A stretch of 64,000 bases of DNA from Candidatus Magasanikiibacteriota bacterium (GTDB taxonomy: Bacteria; Patescibacteriota; Patescibacteriia; Magasanikbacterales; GWA2-37-8). The position numbers and the translations under genes were made by a program. Each line of letters begins with the position of its first letter. The stretch's first letter is position 1. This document shows, in pieces, positions 388 through 674 of the stretch. The DNA is taken from NCBI GenBank assembly GCA_963840935.1, contig CAWJAS010000001.1, positions 45,902-109,901 on the forward strand, written 5' to 3'. The notes under the pieces are model-generated. The model saw only the letters and a program-made list of their open reading frames with translations. It was not told where the DNA came from and did not search any database.

Positions 388-403
388 TTCGAAGTGCTAT
401 TTC

Positions 404-424
404 TGGTGGACCGTAAGGGATTTG
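404..424 (-). other. duplicated 3' fragment of tRNA-Ala(GGC) (T-loop nt ~58 through acceptor plus CCA)
   Basis: Minus-strand reading CAAATCCCTTACGGTCCACCA is identical to the 3' end of the complete tRNA at 601-674, here with an encoded CCA. Confidence 0.7.
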
Positions 425-600
425 GCCTCGCCTCTCGCTCACTTCCGTTCACTCGGGTCCCAAAGGGACCCCTTCGGGGCTGGCCACCTCCGCCGGTTGG
501 CGGATCGCGGTTTGTCTCGCCCGCAAGCTCGCCAAACATCGCTCCGGCGTTCAAATCCCAAAGCGATTCAAATTATTGAATCGCTTAATGTGGACCGTAA
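425..600 (-). repeat. tRNA-associated repeat element (TAR), Ala locus copy: terminator-like hairpin, conserved core, hairpins, terminal box
   Basis: Core GGATTTGAACGCCGGAGCGATGTTTGGCGAGCTTGCGGGCGAGACAAACCGCGATCCGCC... is shared with copies at 8950-9288, 53690-53860 and 60401-60546. Confidence 0.65.
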
Positions 601-674
601 GGGATTTGAACCCTTGGCCTCTTCCATGCCATGGAAGCGCTCTAGCCAGCTGAGCTAACGGCCCAAAAACAAAC
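601..674 (-). tRNA. tRNA-Ala(GGC)
   Basis: Cloverleaf by eye; G3:U70 pair; anticodon loop ATGGCAT; T-arm GGGTTCAAATCCC; no encoded CCA. Confidence 0.88.

Follow-up and report, generated by a model that had tools for sequence, protein, structure and literature searches.

Direct repeats that run from the T loop of a tRNA gene to its end are the classical signature of tRNA-targeting islands with P4-like integrases. Serine recombinases use a 2-bp crossover and leave no repeats of 17-19 nt. Group I introns are known and common in tRNA genes of Patescibacteria (PMC13011429, which covers introns of the anticodon loop only). Members of the IS91 family target 5'-GTTC/CTTG, cause no target duplication, possess subterminal palindromes and form a single-stranded circle, and failed termination mobilizes adjacent DNA (PMC13181058). 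The element described here was identified in a stretch of 64,000 nt from a Candidatus Magasanikiibacteriota bacterium (assembly GCA_963840935.1, contig CAWJAS010000001.1, positions 45,902 to 109,901), referred to as the window. Five copies of this non-coding element of ~150-180 nt are present at four tRNA loci of the window, two of them in tandem at tRNA-Arg(CCT). The element has a characteristic anatomy, a strand-specific covarying fold, a linkage to tRNA genes and an insertion/deletion polymorphism among relatives. With a probability of about one half, it is a structured mobile element that is non-autonomous and confined to the 3' ends of tRNA genes, and which would be moved or amplified in trans by a fold-recognizing enzyme.

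Nine tRNA genes were detected in the window with ARAGORN and Rfam. All five copies are located 3' of a complete tRNA gene on the same strand, and together they occupy ~0.9 kb with a single non-coding fold. A 21-mer of the core (GAACGCCGGARCGATGTTTGG) occurs five times in the window compared with no occurrence in 100 shuffles. It lies 37-66 nt 3' of the same-strand tRNA, or 243 nt in the second Arg unit. A covariance model trained on 18 copies recovered precisely these five, all at full length, and gave no other credible match in the window. This confirms the count of five copies at four loci from an initial inspection of the letters (the sequence-only reading), and the GCGAGC...GCTCGC hairpin, the CGAACGAAGTGAGCGAAGAG box and the permuted Ala copy described there are all present. 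A perfect tRNA repeat of 17-19 nt, reaching from the T loop (C56 or A58) to nt 73/74, closes the Ala, proximal Arg, Pro and Ser copies. The tRNA-end repeat had been given as nt 58-76; it is perfect in these four copies, but spans nt 56/58-74 and is absent from the distal Arg unit. The CCA that was thought to be encoded in the Ala copy proved to be a C followed by the flank CAGAAAT, as the empty allele reads ..GGTCCA/CAGAAAT and the occupied one ..GGTCCAC/CAGAAAT; it was accordingly rejected as a sign of an RNA or retro origin. The element is joined via the shared 3' segment of 17-19 nt, and the tRNA gene thus stays intact.

On the tRNA-sense strand a unit consists of an optional 5' part, a hairpin (HP1), an anti-T segment, the core, an arm (P7) and the tRNA fragment. 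The 5' part is either missing, a terminator-like hairpin (~40% of copies) or the GA-rich CGAACGAAGTGAGCGAAGAG box. HP1 is a covarying stem with a conserved apex (CAA-N4-TTG), and the anti-T segment (e.g. GGGATTCGAAC) is reverse-complementary to the T loop and the 3' strand of the T stem in the host tRNA. The core consensus comprises P4 (CGCC/GGCG), a GGA/GA internal loop, P5 (GCG/CGC), an AU bulge and the P6 hairpin (GUUUGGC...GCCAAAC). P7 is closed by UGGCY/RGCCR and capped by C-GGAA-G, and its stems are A/T-rich or contain tandem G.A steps. These parts form a three-way junction 3' of HP1, in which helix P3, made up of anti-T and nt 57-65 of the fragment, encloses the P4-P6 and P7 arms. Judged from the sequence, the tRNA piece serves the element as one of its structural strands and is more than a scar.

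The same architecture was obtained in minimum-free-energy folds of 22 single copies and with RNAalifold on a MAFFT alignment of 18 copies. In the RNAalifold consensus, a check that the sequence-only reading had proposed, 26 of 41 pairs are compensatory. Among 45 distinct copies aligned to the model, a fit that somewhat inflates pairing but agrees with the MAFFT-based result, 94.3% of the cells are paired, compared with 36-42% when the partners are slid by 1-3 columns. In this set 32 of the 41 pairs vary on both sides, and none of 500 shuffles matched the observed values. All nine pairs of HP1 vary on both sides (98.7% paired), as do all six of P3. G.U pairs (84) far exceed A.C mismatches (19), which indicates that the folding strand is the tRNA-sense strand; the P7 closing pair is U.G in 23 of 45 copies. 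L036, L038, L029 and L051, which were selected by neither of the search patterns described below, keep CGGAGCGAUGUUU and AAACCGCGAGG and vary compensatorily at paired positions. The GC content of the element is 55-65%, that of the genome 38.6%. The Ser copy has a predicted RNA fold of -65.6 kcal/mol (z = -5.1); the opposite strand and the DNA fold are also significant, so that energy alone cannot choose among them.

Where the T stems of tRNA and fragment differ (L011 and the Gly copy of L038), anti-T matches the fragment and not the tRNA. This indicates that anti-T and fragment travel or evolve together. An origin of anti-T as a copy of the tRNA T-stem 5' strand was rejected, since the two differ (Arg, for example, has an A instead of the tRNA's G opposite T64) and anti-T tracks the fragment in L011 and L038. 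A tRNA-like minihelix was also considered and rejected. When compared with shuffled tails, the 3' tail shows significant acceptor-stem-like or terminal complementarity in L006 and L022 alone, and the window copies are at chance level; the element is therefore no general tRNA mimic. In L006 and L022 themselves the 5' strand complements the fragment and runs past the tRNA end, so that it is no copy of the tRNA 5' strand.

Other genomes were scanned with an exact pattern, using one genome per species, and metagenomes with a different part of the core. The first scan gave 15 loci, of which 14 are real; L013 is a chance match within a kinase gene. The metagenome scan added 28 contigs. Groundwater sites such as Rifle or Hainich are among the sources of the contigs. 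In total, 50 covariance-model matches were found in 43 sources, ~45 of them outside the window in other contigs of Patescibacteria (candidate phyla radiation, CPR). The 14 real loci belong to metagenome-assembled genomes (MAGs) labelled Magasanikbacteria, Kuenenbacteria, Saccharibacteria or 'Patescibacteria group', and to two low-GC MAGs labelled Gammaproteobacteria, a label that could not be checked. The sequence-only reading had asked whether copies are always linked to tRNA genes. In 13 of the 14, a same-strand tRNA called by ARAGORN directly precedes the copy; in the remaining one (L014) the copy lies behind a tRNA-like 3' end that is preceded by a group I intron and missed by ARAGORN. Throughout the collection only L024 and L025 show no tRNA in the sequence at hand. 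The host tRNAs represent at least 14 amino acids (Ser, Lys, Pro, Gly, Arg, Asn, Asp, Ala, Val, Leu, Ile, Cys, Trp and Glu). In L043 a zeta-toxin-like toxin-antitoxin (TA) module of 1.4 kb lies between tRNA-Asp and the core, and the terminal Asp 3' fragment has one mismatch. The core is kept nearly letter for letter across several CPR classes while the adjoining genes diverge. Two pattern scans of IMG/VR yielded nothing but one match by chance (L044), within a coding region of high GC content, and blastn gave no matches in INPHARED phages or PLSDB plasmids. Rfam 15 detected only tRNAs in the window at gathering threshold, and tRNAs or noise at E<=10 (Ser copy) or E<=1 (Ala and L006 copies), the best other matches reaching 7-14 bits. 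The family, which had not been recognized from the letters, thus has no match in Rfam, and no description of it was found in the literature, by topic or by core sequence.

Block exchange that includes the tRNA, tandem arrays, decay and mosaics are seen among the copies, and no protein gene is linked to them. Syntenic loci of close relatives were located via neighbouring proteins, and the empty sites for which the sequence-only reading had suggested a search were found at the Ser, Arg and Ala loci. At the Ser locus, L054 harbors tRNA-Ser(TGA)-CGATT-tRNA-Ser(CGA), to which the window adds the 163-nt element with the repeat, the tRNA being identical. The YgjP neighbour of L054 is 82% identical, and L054 comes from the same metagenome sample as the relative with 93% RmuC identity. 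At the Arg locus, relatives with 97, 93, 87 and 80% RmuC identity have the same tRNA-Arg and no model match. The 93% relative contains an AT-rich spacer starting with AGTTTTT, which is the sequence 3' of the window's distal unit, and the 97% relative (L045) a core-less remnant that consists of the terminator, an HP1-like hairpin and part of anti-T. In the more distant genomes L017 and L038 the element is present at tRNA-Arg(CCT). At the Ala locus the 93% and 97% relatives (L049/L050) lack the element, which is present in the 87% relative (L051). Occupied genomes have an identical tRNA-Ala(GGC), which differs from that of the empty genomes at ~20 of 75 positions, and as far as the tRNA itself the upstream flank of the window most closely resembles that of the genomes with the empty allele. 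An occupied-type tRNA behind an empty-type flank indicates that tRNA, element and fragment were swapped as one block with its edges at the tRNA ends.

Tandem arrays occur at the Arg locus of the window and in L017, L019, L022, L036, L038 and L041. The repeat may also continue past nt 74 into a truncated next unit (by 23 nt in Pro, 14 nt in L051 and 11 nt in L006), whereas in L003 and L008 the unpaired acceptor part of the fragment has decayed and the P3 part was kept. Its left edge is always within the T loop (junction 55/56, 56/57 or 57/58, mostly after G53-T-T-C56), and its right edge varies in length. Arg unit 2 has no terminal tRNA fragment and adjoins the original flank AGTTTTT..., as the empty site of L046 shows. 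It agrees with unit 1 in its 5' half, and its core contains the 16-nt hairpin insert of the Ala copy (TCCGCCAACCGGCGGA, after CCGCGA), which is identical in these two copies and found in no other. This points to a mosaic in which modules were exchanged between loci. Arg unit 1 shows a compensatory change from G-C to A-U in P5, the GA-rich box of the Ala copy is relocated into the 3' arm, and the anti-T of the Pro copy (AGGATTTGAAC) is G.U-compatible with its own tRNA. As a general tRNA trailer motif the 5' box is not above chance elsewhere in the window. Distance clustering loosely brings together copies from different genomes that share a tRNA type and not the copies of one genome, only tandem neighbours being mutually closest. 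The idea that a single mechanism enters any tRNA gene, put forward in the sequence-only reading, is not what these data show. Short-read assemblies of near-identical strains (L055-L058, L052 and L053) stop within the element or at the 3' end of the tRNA; one such break falls in Arg unit 1, 572 nt upstream of RmuC. The element thus repeatedly causes CPR contigs to end at tRNA genes.

The positions of all features in the window are compiled in Table 1.

Table 1. Element copies, their host tRNA genes and neighbouring features, numbered from the first nucleotide of the window.
Feature	Position	Strand	Remarks
Ala copy, covariance-model match	406-602	-	
Ala copy, repeat of tRNA nt 56-74	406-424	-	CAAATCCCTTACGGTCCAC; P3 3' strand plus unpaired acceptor-strand tail
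Ala copy, variable arm P7	425-483	-	additional GC hairpin, GA-rich box with C-GGAA-G apical loop, end ..GAGGCC
Ala copy, conserved core	484-548	-	P4 GCC/GGC (most copies CGCC/GGCG), GGA/GA internal loop, P5 GCG/CGC, AU bulge
Ala copy, P6 hairpin (position of the core)	484-548	-	GTTTGGC..GACAAAC
Ala copy, 16-nt hairpin insert	487-502	-	TCCGCCAACCGGCGGA
Ala copy, anti-T	549-559	-	GGGATTTGAAC; reverse complement of own tRNA T loop and T-stem 3' strand; P3 5' strand
Ala copy, HP1 hairpin	563-584	-	GCGATTCAA-TAAT-TTGAATCGC
tRNA-Ala(GGC), complete	590-664	-	ARAGORN; Rfam tRNA 64.2 bits; allele in common only with occupied genome L051
Palindrome upstream of tRNA gene	~8795-8812	-	TGTTTCACGTGAAACA
Arg unit 2 (distal)	8937-9109	-	covariance match 8919-9093, 115.9 bits
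Arg unit 2, 16-nt hairpin insert	8978-8993	-	TCCGCCAACCGGCGGA
Arg unit 1 (proximal)	9110-9287	-	covariance match 9110-9271, 160.3 bits; order: terminator-like hairpin, HP1, anti-T GGAATTGAAC, core, AT-type P7, tRNA repeat
Arg unit 1, repeat of tRNA nt 56-74	9110-9128	-	
tRNA-Arg(CCT), complete	9288-9359	-	ARAGORN, Rfam
LAGLIDADG_3-domain open reading frame	17011-17757	-	
Restriction-modification cluster	43397-46931	-	N6_N4_Mtase, D12-class adenine methyltransferase, TdeIII-type restriction endonuclease
Truncated next unit after Pro fragment	53649-53671	-	second 5' box, 3 mismatches in 23 nt
Pro copy	53672-53859	-	covariance match 53672-53855, 148.2 bits; order: 5' box CGAACGAAGTGAGGAATGGCGAAG, HP1, anti-T AGGATTTGAAC, core, GA-type P7 plus extra hairpin, tRNA repeat
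Pro copy, repeat of tRNA nt 56-74	53672-53690	-	
tRNA-Pro(TGG), complete	53860-53934	-	ARAGORN, Rfam
Second GIY-YIG gene together with tandem ~32-nt units	54100-54514	-	five units of AAAGCCGAGGTTTACTCGGCGTAATGTATGGA
Second GIY-YIG gene	54266-54514	-	
tRNA-Ser(TGA) nt 1-57, perfect copy	59943-60013	+	
GIY-YIG cassette	59943-60350	+	
GIY-YIG gene	60069-60350	+	93 aa
Large serine recombinase open reading frame	60300-62087	-	Resolvase, Recombinase and Zn_ribbon_recom domains
tRNA-Ser(TGA), complete	60314-60401	+	ARAGORN, Rfam
Ser copy	60402-60564	+	covariance match 163.4 bits
Ser copy, 5' box	60401-60419	+	
Ser copy, HP1	60420-60441	+	
Ser copy, anti-T	60444-60456	+	
Ser copy, core	60457-60505	+	
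Ser copy, AT-type P7	60506-60546	+	
Ser copy, tRNA repeat	60546-60564	+	identical from A58
Flank after tRNA-Ser(CGA)	60655-60700		departs from L054

Pfam scans of essentially all sizeable open reading frames (ORFs) show that the window is an ordinary chromosomal region near dnaA/dnaN/rnpA. No tyrosine integrase (Phage_integrase), transposase or reverse transcriptase was found among the scanned ORFs of the window, and all-against-all ORF clustering of 42 loci revealed no recurrent protein family beside the copies. No HUH (Y1/Y2) gene was detected in the window or near the copies, to which the search extended. GIY-YIG genes are nevertheless found at tRNA genes. One of them, in the window, is located 3' of a perfect copy of tRNA-Ser(TGA) nt 1-57 and two hairpins, in a cassette that runs into the full tRNA-Ser(TGA) with its breakpoint at nt 57/58. 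This cassette is missing from L053 and present in L054, where the first hairpin has a compensatory change. It duplicates the 5' part of the tRNA up to the T loop and is thus the mirror image of the core element. A second GIY-YIG gene of the window lies between tRNA-Ala(TGC) and tRNA-Phe; the five AAAGCCGAGGTTTACTCGGCGTAATGTATGGA units that occur 3' of it are each a hairpin of the 5' and 3' strands of the tRNA-Phe acceptor. In L006 (3314-3686) a GIY-YIG gene is placed between two diverged partial copies of the tRNA-Pro 5' part, both ending at T55 (..GGGTT/ATTTAA, breakpoint nt 55/56), upstream of an intact tRNA-Pro. Since both the cassettes with 5'-part copies and the element with its 3'-part copy break at nt 55-58, the T loop is a shared breakpoint.

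The large serine recombinase ORF abuts the 3' end of tRNA-Ser(CGA), ~100 nt from the Ser copy. Having no stop codon before the tRNAs, it runs antisense through both tRNA-Ser genes and the Ser copy. The recombinase was seen at the Ser locus and at no other. The flank after tRNA-Ser(CGA) departs from L054 right after ..CTCTCCGC. The sequence suggests that the recombinase marks a separate island integrated at the tRNA-Ser(CGA) 3' end, the far end of which would lie outside the window. A look-up of the exact protein, meant to trace the island further, matched no record. Several further features were observed. The LAGLIDADG_3-domain ORF ends at the exact first base of tRNA-Cys(GCA), and no partial tRNA-Cys copy is present upstream of this gene. 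The GC palindrome CCTGCCTGCCGGYAGGCAGG(G) is inserted at three unrelated sites, namely in the D loop of a partial tRNA-Ser (L052), in the P7 arm (L021) and before anti-T (L043), and may be a separate miniature hairpin element. Another palindrome, TGTTTCACGTGAAACA, recurs just upstream of tRNA genes in the lineage (in the window and in L045-L048) and may be a promoter-associated operator. A restriction-modification cluster is also encoded in the window.

If the element is mobile, its units would enter or amplify by recombination within the duplicated 3' segment, or by breakage and break repair beside it, at the T loop. A trans-acting enzyme that recognizes the fold would carry out this step, and the acting folded strand may be RNA or single-stranded DNA. 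Small GIY-YIG nucleases are the leading candidates, because theirs are the sole T-loop-associated enzyme genes seen and their own cassettes break tRNA genes there. Each lineage probably keeps to one tRNA type, as a mismatched 3' segment would spoil the tRNA. A number of observations weigh against mobility of this kind. No enzyme is tied to the element, the link to GIY-YIG nucleases is co-occurrence only (3 cassettes in 2 of ~43 sources), and these small proteins have no recognizable DNA-binding domain. A conserved three-way junction with G.U pairs, tandem G.A steps and GNRA-like loops is not needed by a selfish DNA that spreads by break repair and points to an RNA function. The core is conserved to ~88% at the Arg locus, compared with 67% for neighbouring genes, which host-level selection could explain. 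The terminator-like hairpin that follows the tRNA in ~40% of copies is awkward for a co-transcribed RNA and uninformative on DNA mobility. Among the copies, neither an excised form nor a circle junction nor a fresh insertion in a new tRNA type was seen, and the model does not account for the spread to at least 14 tRNA types. Finally, simple insertion models predict a terminal fragment at the distal Arg unit, which has none.

The fold itself, strand-specific and tRNA-sense with G.U well above A.C, is what would be expected if the element were a structured small RNA with a cellular or regulatory role useful to the host, or were at least expressed, made from the tRNA transcript or by read-through, with a core to which a conserved protein or RNA binds. 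The C-GGAA-G loops, the tandem G.A steps that persist despite covariation and the conserved U.G pair closing P7 agree with this explanation, as do the deep conservation of the core, its appearance as a GC-rich island in an AT-rich genome, the constant orientation along the tRNA with a terminator after the element, and the grouping of copies by tRNA type across genomes. The unbiased additional copies, with CGGAGCGAUGUUU and AAACCGCGAGG retained and compensatory changes at paired positions, fit as well. The tRNA-derived 3' piece would then close the fold and provide a defined tRNA-like end for processing or stability, and copies would arise by local duplication and be lost when dispensable, a scenario that we consider the main alternative, possible but doubtful. 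However, the element is missing at three loci from relatives whose neighbouring proteins are 93-97% identical, decayed and truncated copies are common, and ~40% of copies stand behind a terminator-like hairpin with no space for a promoter of their own. No single function is obvious for multiple copies in one genome whose tRNA pieces all differ, and the lack of an Rfam match also counts against this explanation. A related idea, rather unlikely but with a real chance of being true, is that the element forms a new class of structured RNA, or a single strand that folds, by which an enzyme acting in trans would be guided to the T loop or 3' half of the cognate tRNA gene; such a system would have no described relatives. 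It might take the form of a guide- or bridge-like scaffold with ~18 target-identical nt beside GGTTC, or of a small ribozyme acting at GCC/R57; GIY-YIG nucleases could be its partner.

The sequence-only reading interpreted the layout as the att pair of a miniature integrative element without an adjacent cognate integrase. A discrete insertion with a direct repeat of the tRNA 3' end and precise empty sites at the Ser, Arg and Ala loci bears out part of this, and one copy (L043) encloses a TA module. The element could accordingly be a mini-island like a cis-mobilizable element (CIME), an arm or att remnant in which a recombinase acting in trans integrates circles via the 17-19 bp core of the tRNA 3' end and the ~150 nt serve as attP arm. 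We consider this improbable. No tyrosine integrase is encoded by the scanned window ORFs, which upholds the earlier statement in this respect, but a large serine recombinase is encoded ~100 nt from the Ser copy. Its island at the tRNA-Ser(CGA) 3' end would favor an integrase, whereas serine recombinases leave no repeats of the observed length and no protein family recurs at the other copies. An integrase encoded elsewhere in the genome may still act in trans. The right junction (..GAAGCC/RAATCC..) has no T-stem-like inverted core site of the kind expected for a T-loop-class att site, the complementary segment being ~100 nt away, and compensatory covariation is not expected of protein-binding arms. 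Repeats that extend into further units and a single conserved arm combined with at least 14 different cores do not fit either. In addition, the presumed attR piece of tRNA would be a structural strand of the covarying fold, and at the Ala locus the whole tRNA moved along.

The junction after G53-T-T-C56 recalls the target of IS91, and a non-autonomous rolling-circle or single-strand element of HUH type could be imagined, whose enzyme would nick after GTTC in the T-arm hairpin. The helix of anti-T and fragment would rebuild a T-arm-like hairpin at the other end for termination, and read-through would give tandem units and captured flanks. In line with this mechanism are the strand-specific fold, the hairpins, the constant orientation, the multimers in tandem that have a sharp edge at the T loop, and the capture of terminators, a TA module and a tRNA. 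It is nevertheless very improbable and rests on inference: neither the window nor any of the loci showed an HUH gene, the junction varies between 55/56, 56/57 and 57/58, the last bases of the element are RRCC and not GTTC, and insertion of a unit plus a partial unit predicts an extra fragment that was not seen. A by-product of ordinary tandem tRNA duplication and decay, with the core a coincidental or generic repeat, is excluded. Tandem tRNA genes and partial copies do exist (the partial tRNA-Ser of the window and those of L006), but the same covarying core is present at every locus in ~40 genomes or contigs, which contradicts a plain duplication without conserved core, the case that the sequence-only reading had named as refutation. 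Moreover, the repeat invariably has its left edge within the T loop, and what precedes the core is complementary to the fragment instead of reproducing the 5' half of the tRNA.

Should the element be mobile as proposed, it would represent a new way of parasitizing tRNA genes, in which the tRNA is kept whole and part of it is borrowed as a structural strand. It would sometimes carry a replacement tRNA allele and thereby affect the evolution and movement of tRNA genes. An RNA with a partner enzyme might constitute a new targeting or processing system, and if RNA-directed, Patescibacteria would harbor a programmable system for mobility or editing that is specific to tRNA genes. That sequence is spent on a repeated non-coding fold is notable in the tiny genomes of Patescibacteria. 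The covariance model now allows annotation of an element that has so far been unannotated, and which accounts for recurrent assembly breaks at tRNA genes in CPR metagenomes.

Compared with tRNA-targeting islands and CIMEs, the element shares the location at the tRNA 3' end, the direct repeat of 17-19 nt, the intact tRNA, the empty sites and occasional cargo (the TA module of L043). It differs in its size of ~150 nt, in the lack of an integrase in or near ~50 copies, in having at least 14 different tRNA cores, in a right tRNA repeat that is paired internally in a three-way junction and in repeats that enter further units. From large serine recombinase elements it is distinguished by its repeats of 17-19 nt and by the recombinase gene being restricted to the Ser locus. 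Like group I introns and homing cassettes, it is a non-coding structure at specific tRNAs that is patchy in relatives, is transferred together with the flanking tRNA as in co-conversion, contains an internal segment complementary to the adjoining tRNA with G.U pairs, and has GIY-YIG and LAGLIDADG genes nearby. However, it follows nt 73/74, outside the mature tRNA, so that no splicing is needed; it is far too small for a group I core and duplicates the 3' part of the tRNA. No match to Intron_gpI was obtained at E<=10 (Ser) or E<=1 (Ala, L006), whereas the true intron in L014 was detected. The GTTC junction, orientation specificity, distinct hairpin ends, single-strand structure, tandem or read-through products and capture of adjacent DNA are shared with IS91 (PMC13181058), but no HUH transposase was found in the window or loci, the junction is inexact, the terminal bases differ and the left 'end' would be tRNA sequence.

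Short repeats such as BOX, Correia/NEMIS, REP/BIME and miniature inverted-repeat transposable elements resemble it in being short, non-coding, multi-copy and non-autonomous, with shuffling modules and stable folds. They differ from the element in that it is found strictly at tRNA 3' ends, mostly has no terminal inverted repeats, shows no short fixed target duplication and possesses a core that is deeply conserved across CPR classes. Integron attC sites, the substrates of IntI, have a single-strand fold of conserved structure but variable sequence. The element has a strand-specific fold and might be compared with them, but its core sequence is highly conserved and no IntI was seen. A further analogy can be drawn to the omega/reRNA of IS200/IS605-type transposons with TnpB or IscB, in which a conserved scaffold is followed by ~18 locus-specific, target-identical nt; here GGTTC would lie just 5' in the intact tRNA. 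On the other hand, no nuclease gene of this kind was found at the loci, the first nine 'guide' nt are paired in cis and the occupied allele keeps an intact target. The layout of the element, with a tRNA repeat that closes a conserved three-way junction, a lineage-specific anti-T, block mobility and no protein, matches no described family, but resembles several of them in part.

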